Positions 1 through 23,200 of a DNA stretch of 64,000 nucleotides are shown here, piece by piece. The position numbers and the translations under genes are program-made. How positions within the stretch are numbered: the first letter of the stretch is position 1; each line of letters begins with the position of its first letter. Under the pieces are notes generated by a model. That model did no database searches, was not told the origin of the DNA, and saw nothing but the letters and a program-made list of their open reading frames with translations. Origin of the DNA: a virus (Duplodnaviria; Heunggongvirae; Uroviricota; Caudoviricetes); the IMG/VR virus record IMGVR_UViG_2687453424_000001; one strand, 5' to 3'.

Positions 1-1845
1 NNNNNNNNNNNNNNNNNNNNNNNNNNNNNNNNNNNNNNNNNNNNNNNNNNNNNNNNNNNNNNNNNNNNNNNNNNNNNNNNNNNNNNNNNNNNNNNNNNNN
101 NNNNNNNNNNNNNNNNNNNNNNNNNNNNNNNNNNNNNNNNNNNNNNNNNNNNNNNNNNNNNNNNNNNNNNNNNNNNNNNNNNNNNNNNNNNNNNNNNNNN
201 NNNNNNNNNNNNNNNNNNNNNNNNNNNNNNNNNNNNNNNNNNNNNNNNNNNNNNNNNNNNNNNNNNNNNNNNNNNNNNNNNNNNNNNNNNNNNNNNNNNN
301 NNNNNNNNNNNNNNNNNNNNNNNNNNNNNNNNNNNNNNNNNNNNNNNNNNNNNNNNNNNNNNNNNNNNNNNNNNNNNNNNNNNNNNNNNNNNNNNNNNNN
401 NNNNNNNNNNNNNNNNNNNNNNNNNNNNNNNNNNNNNNNNNNNNNNNNNNNNNNNNNNNNNNNNNNNNNNNNNNNNNNNNNNNNNNNNNNNNNNNNNNNN
501 NNNNNNNNNNNNNNNNNNNNNNNNNNNNNNNNNNNNNNNNNNNNNNNNNNNNNNNNNNNNNNNNNNNNNNNNNNNNNNNNNNNNNNNNNNNNNNNNNNNN
601 NNNNNNNNNNNNNNNNNNNNNNNNNNNNNNNNNNNNNNNNNNNNNNNNNNNNNNNNNNNNNNNNNNNNNNNNNNNNNNNNNNNNNNNNNNNNNNNNNNNN
701 NNNNNNNNNNNNNNNNNNNNNNNNNNNNNNNNNNNNNNNNNNNNNNNNNNNNNNNNNNNNNNNNNNNNNNNNNNNNNNNNNNNNNNNNNNNNNNNNNNNN
801 NNNNNNNNNNNNNNNNNNNNNNNNNNNNNNNNNNNNNNNNNNNNNNNNNNNNNNNNNNNNNNNNNNNNNNNNNNNNNNNNNNNNNNNNNNNNNNNNNNNN
901 NNNNNNNNNNNNNNNNNNNNNNNNNNNNNNNNNNNNNNNNNNNNNNNNNNNNNNNNNNNNNNNNNNNNNNNNNNNNNNNNNNNNNNNNNNNNNNNNNNNN
1001 NNNNNNNNNNNNNNNNNNNNNNNNNNNNNNNNNNNNNNNNNNNNNNNNNNNNNNNNNNNNNNNNNNNNNNNNNNNNNNNNNNNNNNNNNNNNNNNNNNNN
1101 NNNNNNNNNNNNNNNNNNNNNNNNNNNNNNNNNNNNNNNNNNNNNNNNNNNNNNNNNNNNNNNNNNNNNNNNNNNNNNNNNNNNNNNNNNNNNNNNNNNN
1201 NNNNNNNNNNNNNNNNNNNNNNNNNNNNNNNNNNNNNNNNNNNNNNNNNNNNNNNNNNNNNNNNNNNNNNNNNNNNNNNNNNNNNNNNNNNNNNNNNNNN
1301 NNNNNNNNNNNNNNNNNNNNNNNNNNNNNNNNNNNNNNNNNNNNNNNNNNNNNNNNNNNNNNNNNNNNNNNNNNNNNNNNNNNNNNNNNNNNNNNNNNNN
1401 NNNNNNNNNNNNNNNNNNNNNNNNNNNNNNNNNNNNNNNNNNNNNNNNNNNNNNNNNNNNNNNNNNNNNNNNNNNNNNNNNNNNNNNNNNNNNNNNNNNN
1501 NNNNNNNNNNNNNNNNNNNNNNNNNNNNNNNNNNNNNNNNNNNNNNNNNNNNNNNNNNNNNNNNNNNNNNNNNNNNNNNNNNNNNNNNNNNNNNNNNNNN
1601 NNNNNNNNNNNNNNNNNNNNNNNNNNNNNNNNNNNNNNNNNNNNNNNNNNNNNNNNNNNNNNNNNNNNNNNNNNNNNNNNNNNNNNNNNNNNNNNNNNNN
1701 NNNNNNNNNNNNNNNNNNNNNNNNNNNNNNNNNNNNNNNNNNNNNNNNNNNNNNNNNNNNNNNNNNNNNNNNNNNNNNNNNNNNNNNNNNNNNNNNNNNN
1801 NNNNNNNNNNNNNNNNNNNNNNNNNNNNNNNNNNNNNNNNNNNNN
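1..1845. other. Run of N (gap or masked block); no sequence information
   Basis: Positions 1-1845 are all n; first called base is 1846. Confidence 1.
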
Positions 1846-2011
1846 TCTGATTATCAGACCGACGATACGAGTGGGACCGTGGTCCCAGACTAATAATCAG
1901 ACCGACGATACGAGTGGGACCGTGGTCCCAGACTAATAATCAGACCGACGATACGAGTGGGACCGTGGTCCCAGTCTGATTATCAGACCGACGATACAAG
2001 TGGAACAGTGG
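1846..2011. repeat. sopC: sopC centromere-like partition site (partial): tandem 43-bp direct repeats, each with the inverted-repeat SopB binding core tgggaccgtggtccca
   Basis: Three near-identical 43-bp units (gggaccgtggtcccagactaataatcagaccgacgatacgagt) plus a degenerate fourth are visible; the array is truncated on the left by the N run. Position immediately downstream of sopB matches F-plasmid organisation. Confidence 0.9.
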
Positions 2012-2105
2012 GCCCAGAGAGAATATTCAGGCCAGTTATGCTTTCTGGCCTGTAACAAAGGACATTAAGTAAAGACAGATAAACGTAGACTAAAACGTGG
2101 TCGCA

Positions 2106-3077
2106 TCAGGGTGCTGGCTTTTCAAGTTCCTTAAGAATGGCCTCAATTTTCTCTATACACTCAGTTGGAACACGAGACCTGTCCAGGTTAAGCACCATTT
2201 TATCGCCCTTATACAATACTGTCGCTCCAGGAGCAAACTGATGTCGTGAGCTTAAACTAGTTCTTGATGCAGATGACGTTTTAAGCACAGAAGTTAAAAG
2301 AGTGATAACTTCTTCAGCTTCAAATATCACCCCAGCTTTTTTCTGCTCATGAAGGTTAGATGCCTGCTGCTTAAGTAATTCCTCTTTATCTGTAAAGGCT
2401 TTTTGAAGTGCATCACCTGACCGGGCAGATAGTTCACCGGGGTGAGAAAAAAGAGCAACAACTGATTTAGGCAATTTGGCGGTGTTGATACAGCGGGTAA
2501 TAATCTTACGTGAAATATTTTCCGCATCAGCCAGCGCAGAAATATTTCCAGCAAATTCATTCTGCAATCGGCTTGCATAACGCTGACCACGTTCATAAGC
2601 ACTTGTTGGGCGATAATCGTTACCCAATCTGGATAATGCAGCCATCTGCTCATCATCCAGCTCGCCAACCAGAACACGATAATCACTTTCGGTAAGTGCA
2701 GCAGCTTTACGACGGCGACTCCCATCGGCAATTTCTATGACACCAGATACTCTTCGACCGAACGCCGGTGTCTGTTGACCAGTCAGTAGAAAAGAAGGGA
2801 TGAGATCATCCAGTGCGTCCTCAGTAAGCAGCTCCTGGTCACGTTCATTACCTGACCATACCCGAGAGGTCTTCTCAACACTATCACCCCGGAGCACTTC
2901 AAGAGTAAACTTCACATCCCGACCACATACAGGCAAAGTAATGGCATTACCGCGAGCCATTACTCCTACGCGCGCAATTAACGAATCCACCATCGGGGCA
3001 GCTGGTGTCGATAACGAAGTATCTTCAACCGGTTGAGTATTGAGCGTATGTTTTGGAATAACAGGCGCACGCTTCAT
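2106..3077 (-). CDS. sopB: SopB (ParB-family centromere-binding partition protein) of F plasmid / BAC vector
   Basis: 323-aa [42 protein letters not shown]... recognised as F-plasmid SopB; its start codon overlaps the sopA stop (TAATG), flanked by sopA and sopC. Confidence 0.95.
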
Positions 3078-4252
3078 TATCTAATCTCCCAGCGTGGTTT
3101 AATCAGACGATCGAAAATTTCATTGCAGACAGGTTCCCAAATAGAAAGAGCATTTCTCCAGGCACCAGTTGAAGAGCGTTGATCAATGGCCTGTTCAAAA
3201 ACAGTTCTCATCCGGATCTGACCTTTACCAACTTCATCCGTTTCACGTACAACATTTTTTAGAACCATGCTTCCCCAGGCATCCCGAATTTGCTCCTCCA
3301 TCCACGGGGACTGAGAGCCATTACTATTGCTGTATTTGGTAAGCAAAATACGTACATCAGGCTCGAACCCTTTAAGATCAACGTTCTTGAGCAGATCACG
3401 AAGCATATCGAAAAACTGCAGTGCGGAGGTGTAGTCAAACAACTCAGCAGGCGTGGGAACAATCAGCACATCAGCAGCACATACGACATTAATCGTGCCG
3501 ATACCCAGGTTAGGCGCGCTGTCAATAACTATGACATCATAGTCATGAGCAACAGTTTCAATGGCCAGTCGGAGCATCAGGTGTGGATCGGTGGGCAGTT
3601 TACCTTCATCAAATTTGCCCATTAACTCAGTTTCAATACGGTGCAGAGCCAGACAGGAAGGAATAATGTCAAGCCCCGGCCAGCAAGTGGGCTTTATTGC
3701 ATAAGTGACATCGTCCTTTTCCCCAAGATAGAAAGGCAGGAGAGTGTCTTCTGCATGAATATGAAGATCTGGTACCCATCCGTGATACATTGAGGCTGTT
3801 CCCTGGGGGTCGTTACCTTCCACGAGCAAAACACGTAGCCCCTTCAGAGCCAGATCCTGAGCAAGATGAACAGAAACTGAGGTTTTGTAAACGCCACCTT
3901 TATGGGCAGCAACCCCGATCACCGGTGGAAATACGTCTTCAGCACGTCGCAATCGCGTACCAAACACATCACGCATATGATTAATTTGTTCAATTGTATA
4001 ACCAACACGTTGCTCAACCCGTCCTCGAATTTCCATATCCGGGTGCGGTAGTCGCCCTGCTTTCTCGGCATCTCTGATAGCCTGAGAAGAAACCCCAACT
4101 AAATCCGCTGCTTCACCTATTCTCCAGCGCCGGGTTATTTTCCTCGCTTCCGGGCTGTCATCATTAAACTGTGCAATGGCGATAGCCTTCGTCATTTCAT
4201 GACCAGCGTTTATGCACTGGTTAAGTGTTTCCATGAGTTTCATTCTGAACAT
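3077..4252 (-). CDS. sopA: SopA (ParA-family Walker-type partition ATPase) of F plasmid / BAC vector
   Basis: 391-aa ORF containing the deviant Walker A motif ([21 protein letters not shown]) and recognised as F SopA. The annotated start may be the internal Met at 4243 (MKLMETL...). Confidence 0.95.
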
Positions 4253-4259
4253 CCTTTAA

Positions 4260-4345
4260 TCATTGCTTTGCGTTTTTTTATTAAATCTTGCAATTTACTG
4301 CAAAGCAACAACAAAATCGCAAAGTCATCAAAAAACCGCAAAGTT
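4260..4345 (-). promoter_or_regulatory. sopAB promoter/operator region with four CTTTGC motifs (SopA autoregulatory sites)
   Basis: Immediately upstream of the sopA start: one ctttgc and three gcaaag (reverse complement) hexamers within about 80 bp. Established knowledge that SopA binds CTTTGC repeats in its own promoter. Confidence 0.7.
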
Positions 4346-4663
4346 GTTTAAAATAAGAGCAACACTACAAAAGGAGATAAGAAGAGCACATACCTCAGTC
4401 ACTTATTATCACTAGCGCTCGCCGCAGCCGTGTAACCGAGCATAGCGAGCGAACTGGCGAGGAAGCAAAGAAGAACTGTTCTGTCAGATAGCTCTTACGC
4501 TCAGCGCAAGAAGAAATATCCACCGTGGGAAAAACTCCAGGTAGAGGTACACACGCGGATAGCCAATTCAGAGTAATAAACTGTGATAATCAACCCTCAT
4601 CAATGATGACGAACTAACCCCCGATATCAGGTCACATGACGAAGGGAAAGAGAAGGAAATCAA

Positions 4664-4830
4664 CTGTGACAAACTGCCCTCAAATTTGGCTTCCTTAAAA
4701 ATTACAGTTCAAAAAGTATGAGAAAATCCATGCAGGCTGAAGGAAACAGCAAAACTGTGACAAATTACCCTCAGTAGGTCAGAACAAATGTGACGAACCA
4801 CCCTCAAATCTGTGACAGATAACCCTCAGA
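4664..4830. repeat. incC iterons (RepE-binding direct repeats downstream of repE)
   Basis: Repeated tgtgacaaa(t/c)t(g/a)ccctca units at about 4664, 4754, 4789 and 4809, matching the ori2 iteron family and lying at the 3' side of repE. Confidence 0.8.
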
Positions 4831-5628
<798 letters not shown>

Positions 5629-5639
5629 CTAAATAAAAA

Positions 5640-5895
5640 AGAGTCAATAAGCAGGGATAACTTTGTGAAAAAACAGCTTCTTCTGAGGGCAATTTGTCAC
5701 AGGGTTAAGGGCAATTTGTCACAGACAGGACTGTCATTTGAGGGTGATTTGTCACACTGAAAGGGCAATTTGTCACAACACCTTCTCTAGAACCAGCATG
5801 GATAAAGGCCTACAAGGCGCTCTAAAAAAGAAGATCTAAAAACTATAAAAAAAATAATTATAAAAATATCCCCGTGGATAAGTGGATAACCCCAA
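5640..5895. other. ori2 (oriS) replication origin: four 19-bp iterons (5685-5779), AT-rich stretch, and tandem DnaA boxes (5874-5890)
   Basis: Four direct repeats of gggcaatttgtcaca / gagggtgatttgtcacac, AT-rich 5820-5870, then gtggataagtggataac (two TTATCCACA-type DnaA boxes on the complementary strand), all upstream of repE. Confidence 0.85.
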
Positions 5896-6359
5896 GGGAA
5901 GTTTTTTCAGGCATCGTGTGTAAGCAGAATATATAAGTGCTGTTCCCTGGTGCTTCCTCGCTCACTCGAGGGCTTCGCCCTGTCGCTCGACTGCGGCGAG
6001 CACTACTGGCTGTAAAAGGACAGACCACATCATGGTTCTGTGTTCATTAGGTTGTTCTGTCCATTGCTGACATAATCCGCTCCACTTCAACGTAACACCG
6101 CACGAAGATTTCTATTGTTCCTGAAGGCATATTCAAATCGTTTTCGTTACCGCTTGCAGGCATCATGACAGAACACTACTTCCTATAAACGCTACACAGG
6201 CTCCTGAGATTAATAATGCGGATCTCTACGATAATGGGAGATTTTCCCGACTGTTTCGTTCGCTTCTCAGTGGATAACAGCCAGCTTCTCTGTTTAACAG
6301 ACAAAAACAGCATATCCACTCAGTTCCACATTTCCATATAAAGGCCAAGGCATTTATTC

Positions 6360-6810
6360 TCAGGATAATTGTTTCAGCATCGCAACCGCATCAGACTCCG
6401 GCATCGCAAACTGCACCCGGTGCCGGGCAGCCACATCCAGCGCAAAAACCTTCGTGTAGACTTCCGTTGAACTGATGGACTTATGTCCCATCAGGCTTTG
6501 CAGAACTTTCAGCGGTATACCGGCATACAGCATGTGCATCGCATAGGAATGGCGGAACGTATGTGGTGTGACCGGAACAGAGAACGTCACACCGTCAGCA
6601 GCAGCGGCGGCAACCGCCTCCCCAATCCAGGTCCTGACCGTTCTGTCCGTCACTTCCCAGATCCGCGCTTTCTCTGTCCTTCCTGTGCGACGGTTACGCC
6701 GCTCCATGAGCTTATCGCGAATAAATACCTGTGACGGAAGATCACTTCGCAGAATAAATAAATCCTGGTGTCCCTGTTGATACCGGGAAGCCCTGGGCCA
6801 ACTTTTGGCG
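6360..6810 (-). CDS. resD: ResD/redF site-specific tyrosine recombinase (resolvase) of F plasmid, C-terminal part only; 5' part lost in the N run
   Basis: Visible translation ...VTPHTFRHSYAMHMLYAGIPLKVLQSLMGHKSISSTEVYTKVFALDVAARHRVQFAMPESDAVAMLKQLS carries the tyrosine-recombinase catalytic signature (R..H..R...Y) and matches the redF gene of BAC vectors. Confidence 0.85.
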
Positions 6811-9800
6811 NNNNNNNNNNNNNNNNNNNNNNNNNNNNNNNNNNNNNNNNNNNNNNNNNNNNNNNNNNNNNNNNNNNNNNNNNNNNNNNNNNNNNNNNNN
6901 NNNNNNNNNNNNNNNNNNNNNNNNNNNNNNNNNNNNNNNNNNNNNNNNNNNNNNNNNNNNNNNNNNNNNNNNNNNNNNNNNNNNNNNNNNNNNNNNNNNN
7001 NNNNNNNNNNNNNNNNNNNNNNNNNNNNNNNNNNNNNNNNNNNNNNNNNNNNNNNNNNNNNNNNNNNNNNNNNNNNNNNNNNNNNNNNNNNNNNNNNNNN
7101 NNNNNNNNNNNNNNNNNNNNNNNNNNNNNNNNNNNNNNNNNNNNNNNNNNNNNNNNNNNNNNNNNNNNNNNNNNNNNNNNNNNNNNNNNNNNNNNNNNNN
7201 NNNNNNNNNNNNNNNNNNNNNNNNNNNNNNNNNNNNNNNNNNNNNNNNNNNNNNNNNNNNNNNNNNNNNNNNNNNNNNNNNNNNNNNNNNNNNNNNNNNN
7301 NNNNNNNNNNNNNNNNNNNNNNNNNNNNNNNNNNNNNNNNNNNNNNNNNNNNNNNNNNNNNNNNNNNNNNNNNNNNNNNNNNNNNNNNNNNNNNNNNNNN
7401 NNNNNNNNNNNNNNNNNNNNNNNNNNNNNNNNNNNNNNNNNNNNNNNNNNNNNNNNNNNNNNNNNNNNNNNNNNNNNNNNNNNNNNNNNNNNNNNNNNNN
7501 NNNNNNNNNNNNNNNNNNNNNNNNNNNNNNNNNNNNNNNNNNNNNNNNNNNNNNNNNNNNNNNNNNNNNNNNNNNNNNNNNNNNNNNNNNNNNNNNNNNN
7601 NNNNNNNNNNNNNNNNNNNNNNNNNNNNNNNNNNNNNNNNNNNNNNNNNNNNNNNNNNNNNNNNNNNNNNNNNNNNNNNNNNNNNNNNNNNNNNNNNNNN
7701 NNNNNNNNNNNNNNNNNNNNNNNNNNNNNNNNNNNNNNNNNNNNNNNNNNNNNNNNNNNNNNNNNNNNNNNNNNNNNNNNNNNNNNNNNNNNNNNNNNNN
7801 NNNNNNNNNNNNNNNNNNNNNNNNNNNNNNNNNNNNNNNNNNNNNNNNNNNNNNNNNNNNNNNNNNNNNNNNNNNNNNNNNNNNNNNNNNNNNNNNNNNN
7901 NNNNNNNNNNNNNNNNNNNNNNNNNNNNNNNNNNNNNNNNNNNNNNNNNNNNNNNNNNNNNNNNNNNNNNNNNNNNNNNNNNNNNNNNNNNNNNNNNNNN
8001 NNNNNNNNNNNNNNNNNNNNNNNNNNNNNNNNNNNNNNNNNNNNNNNNNNNNNNNNNNNNNNNNNNNNNNNNNNNNNNNNNNNNNNNNNNNNNNNNNNNN
8101 NNNNNNNNNNNNNNNNNNNNNNNNNNNNNNNNNNNNNNNNNNNNNNNNNNNNNNNNNNNNNNNNNNNNNNNNNNNNNNNNNNNNNNNNNNNNNNNNNNNN
8201 NNNNNNNNNNNNNNNNNNNNNNNNNNNNNNNNNNNNNNNNNNNNNNNNNNNNNNNNNNNNNNNNNNNNNNNNNNNNNNNNNNNNNNNNNNNNNNNNNNNN
8301 NNNNNNNNNNNNNNNNNNNNNNNNNNNNNNNNNNNNNNNNNNNNNNNNNNNNNNNNNNNNNNNNNNNNNNNNNNNNNNNNNNNNNNNNNNNNNNNNNNNN
8401 NNNNNNNNNNNNNNNNNNNNNNNNNNNNNNNNNNNNNNNNNNNNNNNNNNNNNNNNNNNNNNNNNNNNNNNNNNNNNNNNNNNNNNNNNNNNNNNNNNNN
8501 NNNNNNNNNNNNNNNNNNNNNNNNNNNNNNNNNNNNNNNNNNNNNNNNNNNNNNNNNNNNNNNNNNNNNNNNNNNNNNNNNNNNNNNNNNNNNNNNNNNN
8601 NNNNNNNNNNNNNNNNNNNNNNNNNNNNNNNNNNNNNNNNNNNNNNNNNNNNNNNNNNNNNNNNNNNNNNNNNNNNNNNNNNNNNNNNNNNNNNNNNNNN
8701 NNNNNNNNNNNNNNNNNNNNNNNNNNNNNNNNNNNNNNNNNNNNNNNNNNNNNNNNNNNNNNNNNNNNNNNNNNNNNNNNNNNNNNNNNNNNNNNNNNNN
8801 NNNNNNNNNNNNNNNNNNNNNNNNNNNNNNNNNNNNNNNNNNNNNNNNNNNNNNNNNNNNNNNNNNNNNNNNNNNNNNNNNNNNNNNNNNNNNNNNNNNN
8901 NNNNNNNNNNNNNNNNNNNNNNNNNNNNNNNNNNNNNNNNNNNNNNNNNNNNNNNNNNNNNNNNNNNNNNNNNNNNNNNNNNNNNNNNNNNNNNNNNNNN
9001 NNNNNNNNNNNNNNNNNNNNNNNNNNNNNNNNNNNNNNNNNNNNNNNNNNNNNNNNNNNNNNNNNNNNNNNNNNNNNNNNNNNNNNNNNNNNNNNNNNNN
9101 NNNNNNNNNNNNNNNNNNNNNNNNNNNNNNNNNNNNNNNNNNNNNNNNNNNNNNNNNNNNNNNNNNNNNNNNNNNNNNNNNNNNNNNNNNNNNNNNNNNN
9201 NNNNNNNNNNNNNNNNNNNNNNNNNNNNNNNNNNNNNNNNNNNNNNNNNNNNNNNNNNNNNNNNNNNNNNNNNNNNNNNNNNNNNNNNNNNNNNNNNNNN
9301 NNNNNNNNNNNNNNNNNNNNNNNNNNNNNNNNNNNNNNNNNNNNNNNNNNNNNNNNNNNNNNNNNNNNNNNNNNNNNNNNNNNNNNNNNNNNNNNNNNNN
9401 NNNNNNNNNNNNNNNNNNNNNNNNNNNNNNNNNNNNNNNNNNNNNNNNNNNNNNNNNNNNNNNNNNNNNNNNNNNNNNNNNNNNNNNNNNNNNNNNNNNN
9501 NNNNNNNNNNNNNNNNNNNNNNNNNNNNNNNNNNNNNNNNNNNNNNNNNNNNNNNNNNNNNNNNNNNNNNNNNNNNNNNNNNNNNNNNNNNNNNNNNNNN
9601 NNNNNNNNNNNNNNNNNNNNNNNNNNNNNNNNNNNNNNNNNNNNNNNNNNNNNNNNNNNNNNNNNNNNNNNNNNNNNNNNNNNNNNNNNNNNNNNNNNNN
9701 NNNNNNNNNNNNNNNNNNNNNNNNNNNNNNNNNNNNNNNNNNNNNNNNNNNNNNNNNNNNNNNNNNNNNNNNNNNNNNNNNNNNNNNNNNNNNNNNNNNN

Positions 9801-11161
9801 NNNNNNNNNNNNNNNNNNNNNNNNNNNNNNNNNNNNNNNNNNNNNNNNNNNNNNNNNNNNNNNNNNNNNNNNNNNNNNNNNNNNNNNNNNNNNNNNNNNN
9901 NNNNNNNNNNNNNNNNNNNNNNNNNNNNNNNNNNNNNNNNNNNNNNNNNNNNNNNNNNNNNNNNNNNNNNNNNNNNNNNNNNNNNNNNNNNNNNNNNNNN
10001 NNNNNNNNNNNNNNNNNNNNNNNNNNNNNNNNNNNNNNNNNNNNNNNNNNNNNNNNNNNNNNNNNNNNNNNNNNNNNNNNNNNNNNNNNNNNNNNNNNNN
10101 NNNNNNNNNNNNNNNNNNNNNNNNNNNNNNNNNNNNNNNNNNNNNNNNNNNNNNNNNNNNNNNNNNNNNNNNNNNNNNNNNNNNNNNNNNNNNNNNNNNN
10201 NNNNNNNNNNNNNNNNNNNNNNNNNNNNNNNNNNNNNNNNNNNNNNNNNNNNNNNNNNNNNNNNNNNNNNNNNNNNNNNNNNNNNNNNNNNNNNNNNNNN
10301 NNNNNNNNNNNNNNNNNNNNNNNNNNNNNNNNNNNNNNNNNNNNNNNNNNNNNNNNNNNNNNNNNNNNNNNNNNNNNNNNNNNNNNNNNNNNNNNNNNNN
10401 NNNNNNNNNNNNNNNNNNNNNNNNNNNNNNNNNNNNNNNNNNNNNNNNNNNNNNNNNNNNNNNNNNNNNNNNNNNNNNNNNNNNNNNNNNNNNNNNNNNN
10501 NNNNNNNNNNNNNNNNNNNNNNNNNNNNNNNNNNNNNNNNNNNNNNNNNNNNNNNNNNNNNNNNNNNNNNNNNNNNNNNNNNNNNNNNNNNNNNNNNNNN
10601 NNNNNNNNNNNNNNNNNNNNNNNNNNNNNNNNNNNNNNNNNNNNNNNNNNNNNNNNNNNNNNNNNNNNNNNNNNNNNNNNNNNNNNNNNNNNNNNNNNNN
10701 NNNNNNNNNNNNNNNNNNNNNNNNNNNNNNNNNNNNNNNNNNNNNNNNNNNNNNNNNNNNNNNNNNNNNNNNNNNNNNNNNNNNNNNNNNNNNNNNNNNN
10801 NNNNNNNNNNNNNNNNNNNNNNNNNNNNNNNNNNNNNNNNNNNNNNNNNNNNNNNNNNNNNNNNNNNNNNNNNNNNNNNNNNNNNNNNNNNNNNNNNNNN
10901 NNNNNNNNNNNNNNNNNNNNNNNNNNNNNNNNNNNNNNNNNNNNNNNNNNNNNNNNNNNNNNNNNNNNNNNNNNNNNNNNNNNNNNNNNNNNNNNNNNNN
11001 NNNNNNNNNNNNNNNNNNNNNNNNNNNNNNNNNNNNNNNNNNNNNNNNNNNNNNNNNNNNNNNNNNNNNNNNNNNNNNNNNNNNNNNNNNNNNNNNNNNN
11101 NNNNNNNNNNNNNNNNNNNNNNNNNNNNNNNNNNNNNNNNNNNNNNNNNNNNNNNNNNNNN
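6811..11161. other. Run of N (gap or masked block) inside the vector segment
   Basis: All n. In common BAC vectors the distance between redF and cat is far shorter than 4.3 kb, so the run length probably does not reflect true sequence length, or it hides an insertion. Confidence 1.
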
Positions 11162-11275
11162 AAATGAGACGTTGATCGGCACGTAAGAGGTTCCAACTTT
11201 CACCATAATGAAATAAGATCACTACCGGGCGTATTTTTTGAGTTATCGAGATTTTCAGGAGCTAAGGAAGCTAAA
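11162..11275 (+). promoter_or_regulatory. cat promoter and ribosome-binding site (Tn9 cassette)
   Basis: Sequence aaatgagacgttgatcggcacgtaagaggttccaactttcaccataatgaaataagatcactaccgggcg...aggaagctaaaATG is the standard upstream region of the Tn9/pACYC184 cat gene. Confidence 0.85.
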
Positions 11276-11935
11276 ATGGAGAAAAAAATCACTGGATATA
11301 CCACCGTTGATATATCCCAATGGCATCGTAAAGAACATTTTGAGGCATTTCAGTCAGTTGCTCAATGTACCTATAACCAGACCGTTCAGCTGGATATTAC
11401 GGCCTTTTTAAAGACCGTAAAGAAAAATAAGCACAAGTTTTATCCGGCCTTTATTCACATTCTTGCCCGCCTGATGAATGCTCATCCGGAATTTCGTATG
11501 GCAATGAAAGACGGTGAGCTGGTGATATGGGATAGTGTTCACCCTTGTTACACCGTTTTCCATGAGCAAACTGAAACGTTTTCATCGCTCTGGAGTGAAT
11601 ACCACGACGATTTCCGGCAGTTTCTACACATATATTCGCAAGATGTGGCGTGTTACGGTGAAAACCTGGCCTATTTCCCTAAAGGGTTTATTGAGAATAT
11701 GTTTTTCGTCTCAGCCAATCCCTGGGTGAGTTTCACCAGTTTTGATTTAAACGTGGCCAATATGGACAACTTCTTCGCCCCCGTTTTCACCATGGGCAAA
11801 TATTATACGCAAGGCGACAAGGTGCTGATGCCGCTGGCGATTCAGGTTCATCATGCCGTTTGTGATGGCTTCCATGTCGGCAGAATGCTTAATGAATTAC
11901 AACAGTACTGCGATGAGTGGCAGGGCGGGGCGTAA
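11276..11935 (+). CDS. cat: Chloramphenicol acetyltransferase (type I, Tn9), vector selectable marker
   Basis: 219-aa [76 protein letters not shown]...[28 protein letters not shown], the canonical CAT-I sequence. Confidence 0.98.
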
Positions 11936-11947
11936 TTTTTTTAAGGC

Positions 11948-12202
11948 CATAGGCAAGGTGAGTTTACACGCGCCATTGTATATCGCGTTCCTACACGCCT
12001 GCCGGTTGGCGACATCAGCCGGCAACATGAGAATGGAAATGGCGGCGATGGAGAGCCCGAAAACGACGACGAATTTGGGGAAATACGCTTGGTTAGCGTC
12101 GTCCGGGTGCTGGTAATTGACGAGGAGGTAGACATTGAAGAGGAACACTAGGACGCATACGATTATGGCGACGATTACCAGAGCGAGGTTGAAATCGCCC
12201 AT
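11948..12202 (-). CDS. Plant LIMR-family (LMBR1-like) membrane protein, exon 1 only; truncated at the vector junction after 85 codons
   Basis: ATG at 12202-12200 gives MGDFNLALVIVAIIVCVLVFLFNVYLLVNYQHPDDANQAYFPKFVVVFGLSIAAISILMLPADVANRQACRNAIYNGACKLTLPM, matching the conserved N-terminus of plant LIMR proteins. Homology ends exactly at 11948, where vector sequence begins. Confidence 0.75.
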
Positions 12203-13378
12203 CGTTAAAAGCCCTCGACTCGATTCGAATCGAATCGATAGCGGTAGATTCAACAGGAGATTTGAGAAATTAGGGTTTGCTTTTAACCCTTCGAATTTTA
12301 ATTCGAAGAATTTCGTAGATCTGAGCTTTCCTCTGTGTGTGTGTGTTTTTTTGAAAGGGAAAGGGGGGAGGTTGGGCTCCGGTGAGGTGGTTTGTTGAAT
12401 TTTGGGGTTAATTTTGACGTGTTGGAATTAAATGACGTTATTATCCTTGTGAATTGGTTAAATGACGGGTTGAAAATAGCGAGGAAGAGAGTTGCAGATG
12501 GGGTTGAATGTAACATCACCTTATATTCCCGTGACAAGCATCGAACCAGCCTGTCCAAGGCAAGAAGTTGTTTTTTAAAAAAAAAATTTACATGTAAGAA
12601 ATAACGCTATTTGAACTTTTAGACCGCTTTCTTTATCTTTTATTCCCGTAGAGAAATTCTCTCAATTTTGTTCTTTTTTTTTCCTCAAATCTTTTATTGT
12701 TCTTAATTATACCCTTCAATTGATATAAAAAAATAATTAGTAATTCTTTTTAGGTACGTAAGATTGAGATACTATTATGAATGAAAATTCTAGCTCAAGC
12801 TCCTCACATTTTATTAACGAACTCTTAAATTTTAATTTAAAACTAAACAAGTTTTTAATTTTAACAAAGATTTAACTGTCATTAGATTCGATGTTAATTG
12901 ACTTTTTTACTCACATGATATATTACTTGACGAATTAACATGATAATGTGATTGTTGACGTGGCTAAAAAAATATAATGAGTTTGGTCACATTAGTTGCG
13001 CGTGACCTCACCAATTCACTAAATCATATATCATGTGGACAGGAAAAATAATTAATATTGACTCTAATATTGATTAAATTTTTATTAAAATTAAAAGCTT
13101 GTTCGATTTTAAATCAAAATTTAAGAGTTTGTTTGAATGCAATAATTAAATAAATGATGATAGTACGTAAAATGTTTTTAGGATTGAAGCCATAATTTTA
13201 AGACAATATAAGCAACAAGTGTCTTATTTACTCATGTTCTCACCTAAAGACTTTTTTATGTTGTTACTTAGTGCATGTTTGGTTTAACTTTTTTTCAGTT
13301 TATCTATTTATTGAAAGTAAAAGTTAGGCCAAATATAATATTTTGAAAAACTCTTAAAAAAAAGTAACTTTTTTTAAG

Positions 13379-16300
13379 NNNNNNNNNNNNNNNNNNNNNN
13401 NNNNNNNNNNNNNNNNNNNNNNNNNNNNNNNNNNNNNNNNNNNNNNNNNNNNNNNNNNNNNNNNNNNNNNNNNNNNNNNNNNNNNNNNNNNNNNNNNNNN
13501 NNNNNNNNNNNNNNNNNNNNNNNNNNNNNNNNNNNNNNNNNNNNNNNNNNNNNNNNNNNNNNNNNNNNNNNNNNNNNNNNNNNNNNNNNNNNNNNNNNNN
13601 NNNNNNNNNNNNNNNNNNNNNNNNNNNNNNNNNNNNNNNNNNNNNNNNNNNNNNNNNNNNNNNNNNNNNNNNNNNNNNNNNNNNNNNNNNNNNNNNNNNN
13701 NNNNNNNNNNNNNNNNNNNNNNNNNNNNNNNNNNNNNNNNNNNNNNNNNNNNNNNNNNNNNNNNNNNNNNNNNNNNNNNNNNNNNNNNNNNNNNNNNNNN
13801 NNNNNNNNNNNNNNNNNNNNNNNNNNNNNNNNNNNNNNNNNNNNNNNNNNNNNNNNNNNNNNNNNNNNNNNNNNNNNNNNNNNNNNNNNNNNNNNNNNNN
13901 NNNNNNNNNNNNNNNNNNNNNNNNNNNNNNNNNNNNNNNNNNNNNNNNNNNNNNNNNNNNNNNNNNNNNNNNNNNNNNNNNNNNNNNNNNNNNNNNNNNN
14001 NNNNNNNNNNNNNNNNNNNNNNNNNNNNNNNNNNNNNNNNNNNNNNNNNNNNNNNNNNNNNNNNNNNNNNNNNNNNNNNNNNNNNNNNNNNNNNNNNNNN
14101 NNNNNNNNNNNNNNNNNNNNNNNNNNNNNNNNNNNNNNNNNNNNNNNNNNNNNNNNNNNNNNNNNNNNNNNNNNNNNNNNNNNNNNNNNNNNNNNNNNNN
14201 NNNNNNNNNNNNNNNNNNNNNNNNNNNNNNNNNNNNNNNNNNNNNNNNNNNNNNNNNNNNNNNNNNNNNNNNNNNNNNNNNNNNNNNNNNNNNNNNNNNN
14301 NNNNNNNNNNNNNNNNNNNNNNNNNNNNNNNNNNNNNNNNNNNNNNNNNNNNNNNNNNNNNNNNNNNNNNNNNNNNNNNNNNNNNNNNNNNNNNNNNNNN
14401 NNNNNNNNNNNNNNNNNNNNNNNNNNNNNNNNNNNNNNNNNNNNNNNNNNNNNNNNNNNNNNNNNNNNNNNNNNNNNNNNNNNNNNNNNNNNNNNNNNNN
14501 NNNNNNNNNNNNNNNNNNNNNNNNNNNNNNNNNNNNNNNNNNNNNNNNNNNNNNNNNNNNNNNNNNNNNNNNNNNNNNNNNNNNNNNNNNNNNNNNNNNN
14601 NNNNNNNNNNNNNNNNNNNNNNNNNNNNNNNNNNNNNNNNNNNNNNNNNNNNNNNNNNNNNNNNNNNNNNNNNNNNNNNNNNNNNNNNNNNNNNNNNNNN
14701 NNNNNNNNNNNNNNNNNNNNNNNNNNNNNNNNNNNNNNNNNNNNNNNNNNNNNNNNNNNNNNNNNNNNNNNNNNNNNNNNNNNNNNNNNNNNNNNNNNNN
14801 NNNNNNNNNNNNNNNNNNNNNNNNNNNNNNNNNNNNNNNNNNNNNNNNNNNNNNNNNNNNNNNNNNNNNNNNNNNNNNNNNNNNNNNNNNNNNNNNNNNN
14901 NNNNNNNNNNNNNNNNNNNNNNNNNNNNNNNNNNNNNNNNNNNNNNNNNNNNNNNNNNNNNNNNNNNNNNNNNNNNNNNNNNNNNNNNNNNNNNNNNNNN
15001 NNNNNNNNNNNNNNNNNNNNNNNNNNNNNNNNNNNNNNNNNNNNNNNNNNNNNNNNNNNNNNNNNNNNNNNNNNNNNNNNNNNNNNNNNNNNNNNNNNNN
15101 NNNNNNNNNNNNNNNNNNNNNNNNNNNNNNNNNNNNNNNNNNNNNNNNNNNNNNNNNNNNNNNNNNNNNNNNNNNNNNNNNNNNNNNNNNNNNNNNNNNN
15201 NNNNNNNNNNNNNNNNNNNNNNNNNNNNNNNNNNNNNNNNNNNNNNNNNNNNNNNNNNNNNNNNNNNNNNNNNNNNNNNNNNNNNNNNNNNNNNNNNNNN
15301 NNNNNNNNNNNNNNNNNNNNNNNNNNNNNNNNNNNNNNNNNNNNNNNNNNNNNNNNNNNNNNNNNNNNNNNNNNNNNNNNNNNNNNNNNNNNNNNNNNNN
15401 NNNNNNNNNNNNNNNNNNNNNNNNNNNNNNNNNNNNNNNNNNNNNNNNNNNNNNNNNNNNNNNNNNNNNNNNNNNNNNNNNNNNNNNNNNNNNNNNNNNN
15501 NNNNNNNNNNNNNNNNNNNNNNNNNNNNNNNNNNNNNNNNNNNNNNNNNNNNNNNNNNNNNNNNNNNNNNNNNNNNNNNNNNNNNNNNNNNNNNNNNNNN
15601 NNNNNNNNNNNNNNNNNNNNNNNNNNNNNNNNNNNNNNNNNNNNNNNNNNNNNNNNNNNNNNNNNNNNNNNNNNNNNNNNNNNNNNNNNNNNNNNNNNNN
15701 NNNNNNNNNNNNNNNNNNNNNNNNNNNNNNNNNNNNNNNNNNNNNNNNNNNNNNNNNNNNNNNNNNNNNNNNNNNNNNNNNNNNNNNNNNNNNNNNNNNN
15801 NNNNNNNNNNNNNNNNNNNNNNNNNNNNNNNNNNNNNNNNNNNNNNNNNNNNNNNNNNNNNNNNNNNNNNNNNNNNNNNNNNNNNNNNNNNNNNNNNNNN
15901 NNNNNNNNNNNNNNNNNNNNNNNNNNNNNNNNNNNNNNNNNNNNNNNNNNNNNNNNNNNNNNNNNNNNNNNNNNNNNNNNNNNNNNNNNNNNNNNNNNNN
16001 NNNNNNNNNNNNNNNNNNNNNNNNNNNNNNNNNNNNNNNNNNNNNNNNNNNNNNNNNNNNNNNNNNNNNNNNNNNNNNNNNNNNNNNNNNNNNNNNNNNN
16101 NNNNNNNNNNNNNNNNNNNNNNNNNNNNNNNNNNNNNNNNNNNNNNNNNNNNNNNNNNNNNNNNNNNNNNNNNNNNNNNNNNNNNNNNNNNNNNNNNNNN
16201 NNNNNNNNNNNNNNNNNNNNNNNNNNNNNNNNNNNNNNNNNNNNNNNNNNNNNNNNNNNNNNNNNNNNNNNNNNNNNNNNNNNNNNNNNNNNNNNNNNNN

Positions 16301-17520
16301 NNNNNNNNNNNNNNNNNNNNNNNNNNNNNNNNNNNNNNNNNNNNNNNNNNNNNNNNNNNNNNNNNNNNNNNNNNNNNNNNNNNNNNNNNNNNNNNNNNNN
16401 NNNNNNNNNNNNNNNNNNNNNNNNNNNNNNNNNNNNNNNNNNNNNNNNNNNNNNNNNNNNNNNNNNNNNNNNNNNNNNNNNNNNNNNNNNNNNNNNNNNN
16501 NNNNNNNNNNNNNNNNNNNNNNNNNNNNNNNNNNNNNNNNNNNNNNNNNNNNNNNNNNNNNNNNNNNNNNNNNNNNNNNNNNNNNNNNNNNNNNNNNNNN
16601 NNNNNNNNNNNNNNNNNNNNNNNNNNNNNNNNNNNNNNNNNNNNNNNNNNNNNNNNNNNNNNNNNNNNNNNNNNNNNNNNNNNNNNNNNNNNNNNNNNNN
16701 NNNNNNNNNNNNNNNNNNNNNNNNNNNNNNNNNNNNNNNNNNNNNNNNNNNNNNNNNNNNNNNNNNNNNNNNNNNNNNNNNNNNNNNNNNNNNNNNNNNN
16801 NNNNNNNNNNNNNNNNNNNNNNNNNNNNNNNNNNNNNNNNNNNNNNNNNNNNNNNNNNNNNNNNNNNNNNNNNNNNNNNNNNNNNNNNNNNNNNNNNNNN
16901 NNNNNNNNNNNNNNNNNNNNNNNNNNNNNNNNNNNNNNNNNNNNNNNNNNNNNNNNNNNNNNNNNNNNNNNNNNNNNNNNNNNNNNNNNNNNNNNNNNNN
17001 NNNNNNNNNNNNNNNNNNNNNNNNNNNNNNNNNNNNNNNNNNNNNNNNNNNNNNNNNNNNNNNNNNNNNNNNNNNNNNNNNNNNNNNNNNNNNNNNNNNN
17101 NNNNNNNNNNNNNNNNNNNNNNNNNNNNNNNNNNNNNNNNNNNNNNNNNNNNNNNNNNNNNNNNNNNNNNNNNNNNNNNNNNNNNNNNNNNNNNNNNNNN
17201 NNNNNNNNNNNNNNNNNNNNNNNNNNNNNNNNNNNNNNNNNNNNNNNNNNNNNNNNNNNNNNNNNNNNNNNNNNNNNNNNNNNNNNNNNNNNNNNNNNNN
17301 NNNNNNNNNNNNNNNNNNNNNNNNNNNNNNNNNNNNNNNNNNNNNNNNNNNNNNNNNNNNNNNNNNNNNNNNNNNNNNNNNNNNNNNNNNNNNNNNNNNN
17401 NNNNNNNNNNNNNNNNNNNNNNNNNNNNNNNNNNNNNNNNNNNNNNNNNNNNNNNNNNNNNNNNNNNNNNNNNNNNNNNNNNNNNNNNNNNNNNNNNNNN
17501 NNNNNNNNNNNNNNNNNNNN
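13379..17520. other. Run of N (gap or masked block)
   Basis: All n. Confidence 1.
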
Positions 17521-20234
17521 CTTCTGTTATTTTAAAAATACAATTAAATTTTTATTTTTATTTCAAAAATATCTTCAATTGTTAAAAATAATTACAATAT
17601 TATTTTTTTTAAAAAATACTTTCTATGATAATTTTAACAAAAATTATAATTTATAAAAAAGAACTTATAAAAAAAATTTACCAAACAACTTTAACTTAAT
17701 TTTAAAAATTATTACTTTTCATAAAAACTTCATAATAGCTTTTATGTTAGAAAAAAGTCAAGTCAAACAAGCTCTTAATTTAATCTTAACAATGGCTTTG
17801 CCTCTATTTGAGCATTAACCACACGTAATGTCATCAAGGGAGAAGAAGTAGTTGCCATTTTGGGCTAGTCATGAATTGAGAAGAGAAGCGTAGCATGAAG
17901 AGTACCTAGCATTGATTGCATTATCAAGCTTATATCTTCATCAGAAACTAAACCCAAATGGCAGAGCAAAACATCAAAATGGGAAGCTTTTTTCCTCATT
18001 TTTTGAATTTCTAGCGCAACCCTTTTCAGAGAACTACTTAGTCATCCTGATATCACCTCCATTTCACCTGTATTTTGTCAGTTCCTTTCATGGCGATGGC
18101 TACAACTTTTTGCACTGCTTCTGTAATGATTCCGAGTAAATAATTATTTGTTGATTATGTACCTTGCTGGTGGTTGGTTTATGTATGATGGAAATCTTAA
18201 TCTTTTCAATTTTCCTGGGAATTTCAGACTGTGACTGTGACCACCATTTCTTTTGATTCTTAATCTATGCCTCATTTGTCAAGAGAAAGAGTTTTCATGC
18301 ATCAGTTGGACCCAGAGTCCTGGATTTAACTTTTAACAGGAACACGTGAAATGATTATATCTTGTCAAATATTTAGACAAAAAGTTATCTCAATTTTGGG
18401 TACAAACTCCTTTCCCTGTATCCTGGAGGACTAGTGGGTAGAGGAGAGAAAGACAGCTGCTTGGTTTTTTTTTTTTTCTTACAATTTCCCCTGTTTTTTC
18501 GTACACGATGCCGCCACAGAGCCTGTACCGAGCTGACAACAACTTTCCATCTACTTCTTGATGAATGACTCTTTTATTCGTTCAATCTTTGCCTTGAATT
18601 GCTTTGCCGGATCTCCCATTCAAATTCTGGGATTGAAACCTGGCAGCAATTCTTTCCTGCCATTACTCTTTGTAGAATAACTCTCCCCGGTAATACCCTG
18701 AATCCATTATTTACTATCCTGGAAGATTGGCTCTATCTGGCAATAGTTTTCTCAAGTTCCAGATTTTCAACTTTCGTTTCTTTCTTTAGCGTTGATCTGA
18801 CAACGTTTCTGTCACTGTCATTCATTCCGATGATGGAGATGGGGAAAAGGGTTAACACCAGATTCAAAATGCAAACATCTAAGACTACGAAATTAATCAA
18901 ACAAGGATTCATTTAGCAGGAACTGGGAAGAACATTAAATGCTGTCTTCAACTTGTAAATTTATACATTGATAAATGAAATCCAAGCAAGTTTTTCACAT
19001 GGATTATGCAGATTGTATATCAGAGAAACTCTTTTCGAGACAGGGCATGTGAAAATCTAGCTGGAAAGCCAAGGGAAAAGCTTTAAAGCTTGATGAATTT
19101 CATCCGGATCTTGTACCACCCTCCCTTGCATAATCCGATAGCCTTCCATCCTTGTCTGAATAAAGATCTGATATCATTACGTTTTACTACCTTCATTTGA
19201 TTATGTCCATCTGCCATTTCCAAACTTGCAAATGAATGTACTCTTCCCTATGATCTTACCCTTTTTCCATTGATGGTGCTTCATCTTTATACTAATAGTT
19301 GATGGCGCTGCTACCAGTCTCCTTTACCCAAGCAACAGATTCAGTTCATTGGCTTCGATTGTTGCTTGCGCCAGTTCTTTGTTAGAGGCTCTAATGAAAT
19401 CCCAACTATTTTAGTTTTATCCGTGCTACTTCTACCGGCGGTTGGACAGTTTTTTCTATGGTCGGAAATTCGCCGGATTAATGCCGCTAATGTATTGATT
19501 AAACCGTATTTAGTTTTCTAACATATGATATTAATTATATGATAACACTCTTTTATCTCATAAATCTCAATTTATCCGTTTTAAACCTTAAATTCCAGAC
19601 TTCTAAAGGTTAGGAATAAAATATCTTTTTGAAAATTATTCGACAACATGACTGTTTTTTAAATATTATTTAAGAACAATTCAATAATTAAGAATAACAA
19701 TAAATACGATAATTATGATTATATTTTTTTATGAAAACAGCATCGATTATTCTTAATTAATATTAATTTTATATGTCATATAAGATTATATAATATCACT
19801 CTTTTATCTCAAAATTTCGGTTCACCCACCTTAAAATTTAAATTCGAAACTTTTAAAAATAGAATTGGGTTTGGAAATTGTTCAAGAGTAATAATCAGTG
19901 ACAGAAACAAATGCCGACAATTATATCTTCCACCAAACCAACGGCGACTATTCAATTCTACCTAACCAAATTTTCGTTTTGACTTTCAACCATCCAATAA
20001 CCTCATGCCACGTCAGAAAGCAACCCCGCATGTAACTACCTTAGCAGATATTAACCGTCACCTCTTCCCGGCTTACTCCAACTACCAGTCGTAGCAAGAA
20101 GAAGAAGACTGATCGGTGAGCTTCCAGTTAACTCCGATTCTTCCACTCTCCTTCATGGACTCTGCTCCCCCAATTCTCCAAACTTCCATTTCTTTAATCC
20201 CTAGCGTCAGGGTTTCCTTCTCGATTTCTCAAAT

Positions 20235-23200
20235 ATGGCGGAGCCAAATCGGAGTTCACCTTCCGCCTCCGCCTCCGCCTCTGCCTCCTCCTCCTCTTCA
20301 TCTTCGTCTTACAGGGAGGATTCAGGCGGTGCGGCCGGGGCGGCGGCGTCGTCTTCGGGTACTTCTTCGCAGGTTCGAGAGGAAGAGGAAGGGCAAGATC
20401 ACGAGTATCGGCAGCATCTGCAGCATTTTCATAACCCTGAGCTAGAGAATCAGCACATTGACCTAGTTTCTTATAGAGGTAACTTATCTGGTTTCGATGA
20501 TTCGTCAACGGTGATTGGAGACGACACGTGGTCTTGCATCATCGTGGTTCTCACTTTTTGGTTTTTCGGTTAGTACCCTTTTCCCCTTTCTCATGAATCG
20601 CTCGTTCTTTACATTTGAAAGTAAAAGCTTTTATCTTATGTTGATTCTTTTCGATTGATTTTCTTTTTGAATCGAACAGTGTCTATGACTTTGATTTTGG
20701 GTGTTTACGGGGCGGTGAATATACGGGTCGGTCCGAATTGTTCCCTTCTACTTCAACCGAATCCTATTTTTGTTCAGAGTGTAAAGGTGATTTGCCTTTT
20801 TCTTTTTTCCTTTCTAATTTTTTGATTCGTTTCATGCTTTTTCTTTAAAGGGAAGGGTGGTTTTTGGGTCTATATCTTATTTGGCTTTGTGTTAGGTTGA
20901 GGAGGTAGATGATACCAAGCCAGGGCTCAAACTATATGGATTTTATAAATCTCCATCTCTTGATGTAGTGACTACCTGGTCTGAAACTCGTACCGCTACT
21001 GTTCAAGCTGATTCTCACAAGGCAAGTTCGGTTTCTTGTTCTGTTTTTTGCTTGAATGTTTTGGTTCTGAACTTGTATTTCATTTCCCAAATTTTTTTTA
21101 TATTATCCAGGAGTGGATTCATTATCTGAACAGGGGCTCTCAAGTTAATATTTCATATAATGTGAACTCAGCAGGCTCCTCTGTTTTCCTTATAATTGCT
21201 CAAGGTATCCTGAAACACTAAAAGCTTTTTCAGAATGTGTTTCTCAAAGAATTATTTTCACAAAGTGTGTGTGGAAATGCTGTAGATTAAGTAATTGAAT
21301 CCTGGGAATCTGATGCTTTAATTCATTTTGTCACATTGCAGGCAGTGAGGGCCTTTCTCAATGGCTTGAGGACCCAACATATCCTAACACCACTTTGTCG
21401 TGGAACATTGTTCGTGGTGAGATGGAAATGCAAAAGTATGAATGTTCTTACTATATAGAGTTTTATGCTGACTTTGATATTACTTTTCGGCAGGAAGTGG
21501 TATGATTCAGCAGGATATATATAGATCTTCAAGTTACTATATTGCACTGGGTAATTTGAACTCAGAGGATGTGGAGGTAATTGAAAAAATTTGACCTGCC
21601 GAGCTTGGTTTGTTGTTTTGGTTCTTTCATTGAAGTTCTGCTAAAATATTTGAGATATTGAGATCAAAACTTCATTGTCTTCTGTTACCAACCTCAGAAA
21701 AGAAACGTTTCATGGTGCTTGTCCCTTTTGATTTGTCAGAATTGATATTATGATATGATTGAAGAATCGGATTAACTTACTAAGAAAGGGTTACTTTAAT
21801 CCATTTAAGCAATGCTACATTGTAACTGTGGTGGAAATATTATAAGTGCAGCAATGTCAAGTAAAACTTTGGGCTGAGGAGGGTGTTTATTTCTGCAAGG
21901 CTGCAGTTATAGAAGTATAGGAATCTATAATATGGATTGACATTTTTATGGTAAACATGAGAACATAAATGCTGCAAGTCTCAATTTACTTTAAAAGTTT
22001 GTATGAATGTCAGATGGACTAATGGGCAAAATTGAATAGCCATGGATCCATTTTCCTAACAATTATTTAAGCATATGACTTCAAAATATTAATTCCAAGA
22101 AACTCAGAACCTGCCAAGTCAGGTTTGAGAGGCAGGTATATATAATGGATATCTCAAGTTCAAGTAAATGCGCTGTAGGTGACAAAAAAGCCTATCATTC
22201 TCTCAGATTTCACTGAACCTTTTCTTTTTATTAGATGCTGTTCCCTTGCCCTTTTTTGTGTTCTTTGGTTTCATCTTTTCACATAAAAATTGAGTTGATT
22301 TTAACATTGAACAGGTGGAGTTAAACATCACAGTCAGGGCTTTCATCTACAATACAACTGAAGCTTACTACAGATGTACCTTCGGTAATGGCCTGTGTAG
22401 CTTGAGTGTTTTGTTTCCTCAGGGAAATTCTGTTGTCTTGACTTCTCCAGGTCTAGAACAGGTAAATCTCTTTTTATTTTAAACCTAAATCCTACTTTCT
22501 ATGTCTTTCTTGAGATTATGTCGTTTTGAAGGCTGTTACAGCGGCATTCCTATGTTATTAGGCATGATAAATATATGTTCTAATGCTTCCGTCTGTGCTG
22601 AATAATTTCTTATCTTTTGAAGTGCTATACTGAATAATTTCTAAATCCTGTTTTAGAAAGTCTTTTCATTTTCTGTTCTCCCTCTTTTTGGCTACTTCAG
22701 AGTACATCTGCAGATGACTGGTCTGTCAGATTGTCATATGGACCAAGATGGATTATATATATAGTTGGCATTGGTAAAGTTCTTTCTTTTAATTACTCTA
22801 AATGCGCAACCTTTACAAATGTTTCATGTTTAAATCTTGAATTCTAATTTTCTTCTTAAAGGTGGAATGACAGCAATCATGTTGGTAGCCTTCAACTTCT
22901 TAAACAAGTTCCAATTTACCCGTGGAGGTGAAACAAATCTTCATTATGGGGAGAATGCTTCTGCAAGGGCCCCTCTGCTTTCTAACAAAGATGATGATAT
23001 CTCAAGTTGGGGTTCATCCTACGATTCTGTCTCAAGTGATGAGGCAGATCTTGAAGATTTTCTGGCAGCAGGTTCTGTTGAAGGGACATCAATAAGAGAA
23101 GGTGAAAACAGTAACAATACCCGACGTCTTTGTGCAATTTGCTTCGATGCTCCAAGGGACTGCTTCTTCCTTCCTTGTGGGCACTGTGTGGCTTGCTTTG

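Follow-up and report, generated by a model that had tools for sequence, protein, structure and literature searches.

Results

Organisation of the window

The DNA analysed here (the window) is a stretch of 64,000 nucleotides with the structure of a gapped scaffold. Determined sequence lies at 1846-6810, 11162-13378, 17521-24742, 28503-33221 and 37507-64000, and the rest consists of N runs. At its left the window carries a mini-F replicon and a Tn9-derived chloramphenicol-resistance gene (cat), running in the order sopC-sopB-sopA-repE-oriS-cat. The replication and partition module on which this type of BAC vector depends (repE, sopA, sopB and sopC) is present. Shortly after the cat stop codon, which was confirmed at the predicted position, the sequence passes directly into the first exon of a plant LIMR (LMBR1) gene on the minus strand. 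The positions of these features are collected in Table 1.

Table 1. Features of the window, in order of position
Feature	Position	Strand	Basis or remark
Scaffold gap (N run) left of vector	1-1845		Reaches window edge
sopC centromere repeats of mini-F, 43-bp unit, 3.9 copies	1853-2018	-	Repeat cross-matches; contig begins within array
sopB, ParB-family partition protein	2106-3077	-	ORF; 100% identical to annotated pMiniF records
sopA partition ATPase	3077-4243	-	ORF; vector annotation
repE replication initiator, oriS region adjacent	4831-5586	-	ORF; vector annotation
Truncated F resolvase/integrase remnant	6360-6707	-	Annotated in two reference records
Engineered F/Tn9 joint, after resolvase remnant	6709-6810		Not in natural F; comparison of natural F with mini-F vectors
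N run, 4,351	6811-11161		One vector base replaced, A in TTTTGGCG[A]AAATGAGACG; length spurious
cat promoter and leader, Tn9-derived	11162-11275	+	Vector match
cat (catA1) CDS, stop included, T at 11494	11276-11935	+	EcoRI site destroyed; pIndigoBAC-type variant
Chimeric ORF	11897-12202	-	LIMR residues 1-85, 16 residues of antisense cat, then stop
Final 12 bp of vector, TTTTTTTAAGGC	11936-11947	+	Break after 11947
Cacao LMBR1/LIMR gene, exon 1 codons 1-85	11948-12202	-	Last 32 exon 1 codons and remaining gene missing
Native cacao 5' flank of LIMR gene	12203-13378		Colinear with Matina 1-6 chromosome 5
N run, 4,142	13379-17520
N run, 3,760	24743-28502
PDX1 gene, intronless	29169-30101		Product 100% identical to Theobroma cacao proteins
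N run, 4,285	33222-37506
ORF with 2-oxoglutarate/Fe(II) dioxygenase N-terminal domain	62565-63128	-	DIOX_N, E = 6.7e-30

Identity of the vector

The first vector block (1846-6810) was identical along its entire length of 4,965 bases to small engineered mini-F plasmids, whereas natural F plasmids matched at 100% over the first 4,863 bases only. As the final 102 bp are absent from natural F, they represent the engineered F/Tn9 joint of BAC-type vectors. The second block (11162-11947) matched the catA1 regions of 835 plasmids at 99.9-100%, as found by megablast against 72,556 plasmids, and the match ended at 11947 in every record among the matches listed. The two blocks are adjacent in three reference vectors, with a single base between them (...TTTTGGCG[A]AAATGAGACG...). 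The window thus holds 4,965 + 786 = 5,751 vector bases, or 5,752 counting the base lost at the N run.

The sole difference from pMiniF was a T for C at 11494, which changes GAATTC to GAATTT (11489-11494). The same T is found in the BAC-like record CP036489.1, and both vector blocks are free of EcoRI sites. Knockout of the EcoRI site in cat is a change that we take to be a hallmark of the pIndigoBAC lineage. Judged by its sequence, the vector is an engineered mini-F BAC backbone of the pIndigoBAC type. It shares with the pIndigoBAC536, pIndigoBAC-5 and pBeloBAC11 family a backbone 100% identical over sopC-sopB-sopA-repE-oriS, the resolvase remnant, the F/Tn9 joint and the Tn9 cat gene with its EcoRI-site knockout. 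It differs from that family in that the lacZ-alpha/polylinker cassette, NotI sites, SP6 and T7 promoters, loxP and cosN are all missing from the window.

At the left end, position 1846 maps 1,360 bp from the BamHI site of the reference BAC, on the T7 side. The T7, loxP and cos side of the vector, and whatever lies further left, may be situated beyond the N run at 1-1845. The sopC array amounts to 3.9 copies in the window and to more repeat units in the reference vectors; it was probably collapsed or cut by the assembler.

Identity of the plant DNA

The minus strand from 12202 to 11948 encodes the 85 residues MGDFNLALV...NGACKLTLPM. In keeping with the original prediction of a plant LIMR N-terminus, this peptide matched Pfam LMBR1 (PF04791) with 54.4 bits against a cutoff of 31.9, and found 54 homologues at E ≤ 1e-10 with identities of up to 93%. 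Its residues 1-85 are identical to native cacao exon 1. Both native cacao and 14 aligned homologues go on as ...LPM-[K/R]xLWLA...YEGDQDK to residue 117, where exon 1 ends. Homology does end at the Met codon at 11948-11950, as had been observed, but this codon is not the start of the protein: it is the internal Met85, and the start Met lies at 12200-12202. Nor is the gene cut within a codon, as had been supposed, since the break falls between the codons for Met85 (ATG) and Lys86 (AAG), in the middle of the exon.

The window aligned to the Matina 1-6 chromosome record CM001883.1 at 99.7-99.96% identity, with 9 differences in about 20 kb, 7 of them homopolymer-length indels; the stretch 11948-13378 gave 99.7% identity to Matina 1-6 chromosome 5. 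The locus lies at about 0.74-0.84 Mb of that chromosome. The gene order LMBR1 - APD/RING E3 - PDX1 - rhodanese - symplekin (window 11948-44072) was conserved in all six cacao assemblies compared. These matches identify the plant DNA as Theobroma cacao chromosome 5. A related plant locus, tried as a definition of the native flank, proved too divergent (75% identity), and the cacao loci were used instead. The same neighbourhood is presumably found on Arabidopsis chromosome 5, with At5g01400 (ESP4/symplekin), At5g01410 (PDX1.3), At5g01450 (APD2) and At5g01460 (LMBR1-like); Arabidopsis PDX1.3 falls in the same 90% cluster as the PDX1 of the window. Separate from the junction and unrelated to it, the ORF with the DIOX_N domain probably corresponds to exon 1 of a plant gene for a 2OG oxygenase.

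In each of the six cacao assemblies, Matina 1-6 included, the alignment to the window began at 11948, and the LMBR1 gene model was intact (510-512 aa) and free of vector. Five T. cacao assemblies read straight through the site as ...GAGATCCTT/CATAGG... (the slash marks the position of the break), with exon 1 comprising all 117 residues. The copy in the window thus agrees with the cacao chromosome 5 LIMR gene in residues 1-85 and in the flanking gene order, and differs from it in stopping after Met85 and continuing in frame into 16 nonsense codons of antisense cat; it is no real allele. The resulting chimeric ORF is absent from public gene calls in both its 101-aa ATG form and its 118-aa TTG form. 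Gene predictors could call it a short LMBR1-domain protein.

The junction at base resolution

Direct alignment placed the end of vector identity, predicted at about 11947, at exactly that base, with cacao sequence from 11948 onwards. Past this point the vectors run on as AGTTATTGGTGCCC... and the window as CATAGGCAAGG.... At the break the vector reads ...TTTTTTTAAGGC/AGTTATTGG..., native cacao, identically in five assemblies, ...CCAGAGATCCTT/CATAGGCAAGG..., and the window ...TTTTTTTAAGGC/CATAGGCAAGG.... The three-way alignment showed 0 bp of microhomology (vector C/A, cacao T/C). Since the parents share no base at the join, the breakpoint 11947/11948 is unambiguous. Replication slippage or microhomology-mediated deletion, considered as a source of the join, is unsupported with 0 shared bases. 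The pentamer AGGCA does occur in both parents near the break, but it is out of register and would yield a different product.

Neither an assembler overlap nor a slippage repeat was found at the break. As there is no overlap, the assembler could not have built the join from overlapping reads, and the join must either have been carried by one or more physical template molecules or have arisen through editing. The join sits within an unbroken 2,217-bp contig (11162-13378). No 454 or Illumina linker or adaptor sequence was found at the join or elsewhere in the window, and no E. coli DNA in its right part. The native left flank of LIMR and the missing vector segment do not occur elsewhere in the window.

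On the cacao side, a native GATC (AGATCC) places an MboI cut site 7 bp to the left of the break, in the part that was lost. HindIII, EcoRI and BamHI sites were absent from the 1.5 kb of native cacao sequence scanned (595 bp to the left and about 905 bp to the right). With GATC sites spaced at 390-490 bp, a random break would fall within 7 bp inside such a site in about 1.8% of cases. On the vector side, the break falls, in the correct orientation, within the interval of about 407 bp from the cat stop codon to the BamHI site, for which the random chance is about 5%. Outside this interval, no stretch on that side could be deleted with chloramphenicol resistance retained.

Comparison with a canonical clone boundary

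The record CP036489.1 served for comparison with a normal cloning junction. Beyond the position of the breakpoint it continues through NotI (+116), the lac operator (+278), the M13-reverse site (+306) and an SP6-type promoter to the HindIII cloning site (+365). Its other junction reads HindIII-SphI-XbaI-BamHI (+30 from HindIII)-EcoRI-T7-M13F-NotI-loxP-cosN-sopC. A canonical BamHI junction would read ...TCTAGAG/GATCCTTCATAGG.... The usual vector between the breakpoint and an insert therefore measures 365 bp in a HindIII clone or 395 bp in a BamHI clone, in agreement with the original statement that inserts normally lie hundreds of bp from cat, and all of it is missing from the window.

The orientation of the join is that of the canonical junction, with the cat side of the vector followed by insert. 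In the canonical junction the vector extends 365 bp (HindIII) or 395 bp (BamHI) further and ends in a restriction half-site, whereas the window joins insert to vector 12 bp after cat, with no half-site and with 7 bp of insert gone relative to the nearest GATC. Polylinker, lac operator, SP6/T7, NotI, loxP and cos sequences were not detected in the 64-kb window, nor were pieces of at least 40 bp of the missing vector segments, and no half-site for HindIII, BamHI/MboI or EcoRI was present at the join. By comparison with a canonical MboI/BamHI clone starting from the neighbouring GATC, 395 bp on the vector side and 7 bp (GATCCTT) on the insert side are missing from the window. The view that this is not a normal clone boundary is thereby upheld: vector identity ends at 11947 and does not run on through a polylinker to a restriction-site boundary. 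Neither this continuation nor abundant reads from uncloned genomic DNA across the junction, the two observations named in advance as telling against the original prediction, was encountered.

The comparison record itself (Rahnella aquatilis 'plasmid pMEM40-2', 49,310 bp), deposited as a natural plasmid, is a HindIII BAC clone of the pIndigoBAC/pBeloBAC type, with mini-F, EcoRI-minus cat, lacO, M13R, SP6, polylinker, T7, loxP and cosN flanking an insert of roughly 42 kb. In the fragmented annotation of that insert, three DUF3458 CDS pieces lie side by side, a hint of eukaryotic DNA with introns. The record is probably contamination in that bacterial assembly.

A vector or cassette that we failed to recognise, with its cloning site or cassette end directly after ...TTTAAGGC, would make the join a canonical one. 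The 786-bp block 11162-11947 does resemble a discrete cat cassette, delimited on its left by a contig break and on its right by the join. However, its left edge is a one-base assembly break inside continuous vector, the join has no restriction half-site, and the EcoRI-minus cat and backbone are of the pIndigoBAC type, in which the cloning site is 365-395 bp away. A cat flank diverging at 11947, after AAGGC, was not found in bacterial genomes of 185,579 species. The junction 30-mer had 0 matches in the bacterial and archaeal genome and JGI metagenome collections, and our search turned up no vector whose published map or sequence places a cloning site at the position of 11947. This explanation is very unlikely.

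Gap lengths and the state of the assembly

Comparison with reference vectors and native cacao showed that the known sequence under the four internal N gaps amounts to 1, 53, 24 and 312 bp. The gaps exceed these lengths by 4350, 4089, 3736 and 3973 bp, each being about 4 kb too long. That the N runs are masks over real sequence was rejected, since they replace only these short stretches. The near-constant excess agrees with the 3-5 kb size of the bridging subclones in the cacao BAC project. These values suggest that gap lengths were set from a nominal clone size and not from real distance. With its short contigs, homopolymer breaks and wrong gap sizes, the assembly is clearly a draft.

The gaps also bear on whether the vector could have been integrated in the LIMR gene of the cacao sample that was sequenced, through an unrecorded transgene, a somatic event or horizontal transfer. 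The topology is insertion-like: exon 1 is directed towards the vector, and there is more scaffold on the left of the vector. Illegitimate integration typically leaves blunt, homology-free joins, and the join is of this kind. Against this, the gene is intact in the six cacao assemblies, among them the near-identical Matina 1-6 chromosome, with the uninterrupted sequence explicit in five. The DNA is moreover an engineered E. coli cloning vector of the type used for the BAC libraries of this very cultivar, and its contigs share the gap-size bias of the plant contigs. The shared bias suggests that vector was abundant in the same clone-derived read set. We regard genuine integration as extremely improbable.

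Discussion

Provenance of the window

BAC libraries of Matina 1-6 were made in pIndigoBAC536 from partial digests with HindIII, MboI and EcoRI (PMC3173454). Across the first ~3.5 Mb of Tc05, 27 tiling-path BACs were sequenced by 454 (PMC3154204), and the locus of the window, at about 0.8 Mb, falls within the interval that they cover. For thirteen BACs, Sanger sequencing was done on pBluescript subclones made by blunt ligation of 3-5 kb fragments after end repair and phosphorylation (PMC3154204). The deposited pseudomolecule incorporates three draft TCC_BB BAC "scaffolds", and vector was subsequently "clipped" from it by means of cross_match (PMC3154204). We infer that the window derives from this Feltus/Saski cacao BAC project, an origin that would account for the cultivar, the type of vector, the N runs and the draft state of the sequence. 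The best explanation of 1846-11947 is that it is untrimmed vector of the pIndigoBAC536 type in a draft, gapped, BAC-derived assembly of Matina 1-6 chromosome 5.

The library paper contradicts itself on the enzymes: its text and methods give MboI for TCC_Bb and EcoRI for TCC_Bc, and its Table 1 gives EcoRI for Bb and MboI for Bc (PMC3173454, Saski et al. 2011). The discrepancy bears on which clone series could start at the GATC beside the break.

Origin of the join

The join had been proposed to reflect mis-assembly, rearrangement of a clone or vector contamination attached to genomic sequence. The engineered BAC backbone and the six cacao assemblies with LIMR uninterrupted agree with this, and that the join is an artefact of some kind is virtually certain. 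How it arose is a separate matter. The reading we prefer, with confidence about evenly poised, is an aberrant end of the BAC clone at which damaged ends were joined blunt. A clone from an MboI partial digest would have begun at the cacao GATC 7 bp left of the break. Some 395 bp of vector would have been lost, comprising NotI, the lac promoter/operator, the M13-reverse and SP6 sites and the polylinker up to BamHI, along with the 7 bp GATCCTT of the insert. The damaged vector and insert ends would then have been joined blunt, the deletion having halted 12 bp after the cat stop codon, near the limit set by chloramphenicol selection. We infer that the join was present in the BAC molecule itself and that the clone came from the MboI library.

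Several observations fit such a clone end. The vector break lies between the cat stop and the BamHI site (~407 bp) in the right orientation, and the cacao break lies 7 bp inside a GATC, a position with a chance of about 1.8%. The consensus of the 2.2-kb contig passes straight through the join, and both the missing vector segment and the native left flank are absent from the rest of the window. Matina 1-6 libraries were made in pIndigoBAC536 with MboI among the enzymes (PMC3173454), and tiling-path BACs cover the locus at ~0.8 Mb (PMC3154204). On the other hand, the proximity of the GATC was spotted after the fact and could be a coincidence, and the losses are asymmetric, 7 bp of insert against 395 bp of vector. 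The replacement BACs of the project, furthermore, were chosen for having both end sequences, and a clone without the M13R/SP6 site cannot give one; this objection counts only if the window comes from one of the three replacement BACs.

Zero microhomology is equally expected from blunt co-ligation of sheared shotgun fragments. Two unrelated sheared fragments of a BAC preparation, the first with its end 12 bp past cat and the second with its start in LIMR exon 1, might have been ligated together in a shotgun or paired-end library and built into a low-coverage contig, the true BAC junction being normal and located elsewhere. The blunt join is compatible with this, and the blunt-ligated 3-5 kb pBluescript subclones and the 454 3-kb paired-end library of the project are known sources of chimeras; the draft grade of the assembly, with its short contigs, homopolymer breaks and wrong gap sizes, points the same way. 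Two coincidences would be needed, however, a vector break near the cloning site (~5%) and an insert break near an MboI site (~1.8%). With competing coverage on both sides, Phrap and CABOG would normally discard a single chimeric read, and here the assembler would have had to accept one. In addition, the window contains none of the vector sequence from +1 to +115 past the break, although screening against pBluescript could not have masked that sequence. Such a chimeric sequencing template is a possible but rather unlikely source of the join.

The join could also have been made after assembly, if vector clipping (cross_match excision or removal of a database-flagged span) had taken a stretch out of a canonical BamHI/MboI junction and butted the flanks together. 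The cited pipeline did use cross_match to clip the pseudomolecule of remaining vector and E. coli sequence (PMC3154204), the missing stretch ends beside the GATC that would be the canonical insert start, and the join shows no microhomology. A vector-aware screen would, however, also have removed cat and the F replicon, of which 5,751 bp remain. The vector alignment would have ended at GGATCC, leaving TTCATAGG, whereas the cacao part of the window begins with CATAGG, 2 bp further on. The edge on the vector side, 12 bp after cat, coincides with no boundary, whether designed or natural. Editing of this kind appears improbable.

Implications

Vector contamination and chimeric joins in draft genome records form a class that is screened for with VecScreen/UniVec. 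The present case resembles others of that class in that a cloning vector lies inside a eukaryotic record and produces a false gene truncation. It differs in that most such contaminants are short pieces proximal to the polylinker, whereas here a nearly whole replicon and its marker are present and the polylinker-proximal part is absent. If the reading as an aberrant clone end is true, the locus would also exemplify BAC clones that have lost one end-sequencing primer site and one NotI site.

The region had been described as a false 10-kb bacterial insertion. It is indeed false as plant genome, but the size does not hold, as it consists of 5,751 vector bases and a run of 4,351 Ns. Positions 1846-11947 and the flanking N runs should be treated as vector contamination, and the N-gap lengths are not to be trusted; the overlong gaps add roughly 16 kb of distance that does not exist. 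Nothing at this locus is biologically new, and the truncation of LIMR is false. Work that treats the record as cacao genome would take over 5.75 kb of E. coli cloning vector, with its chloramphenicol-resistance gene and F replicon, and a false gene model in which LIMR would look truncated and fused. Later screens could list a plant as carrying a resistance gene or as a case of horizontal gene transfer.
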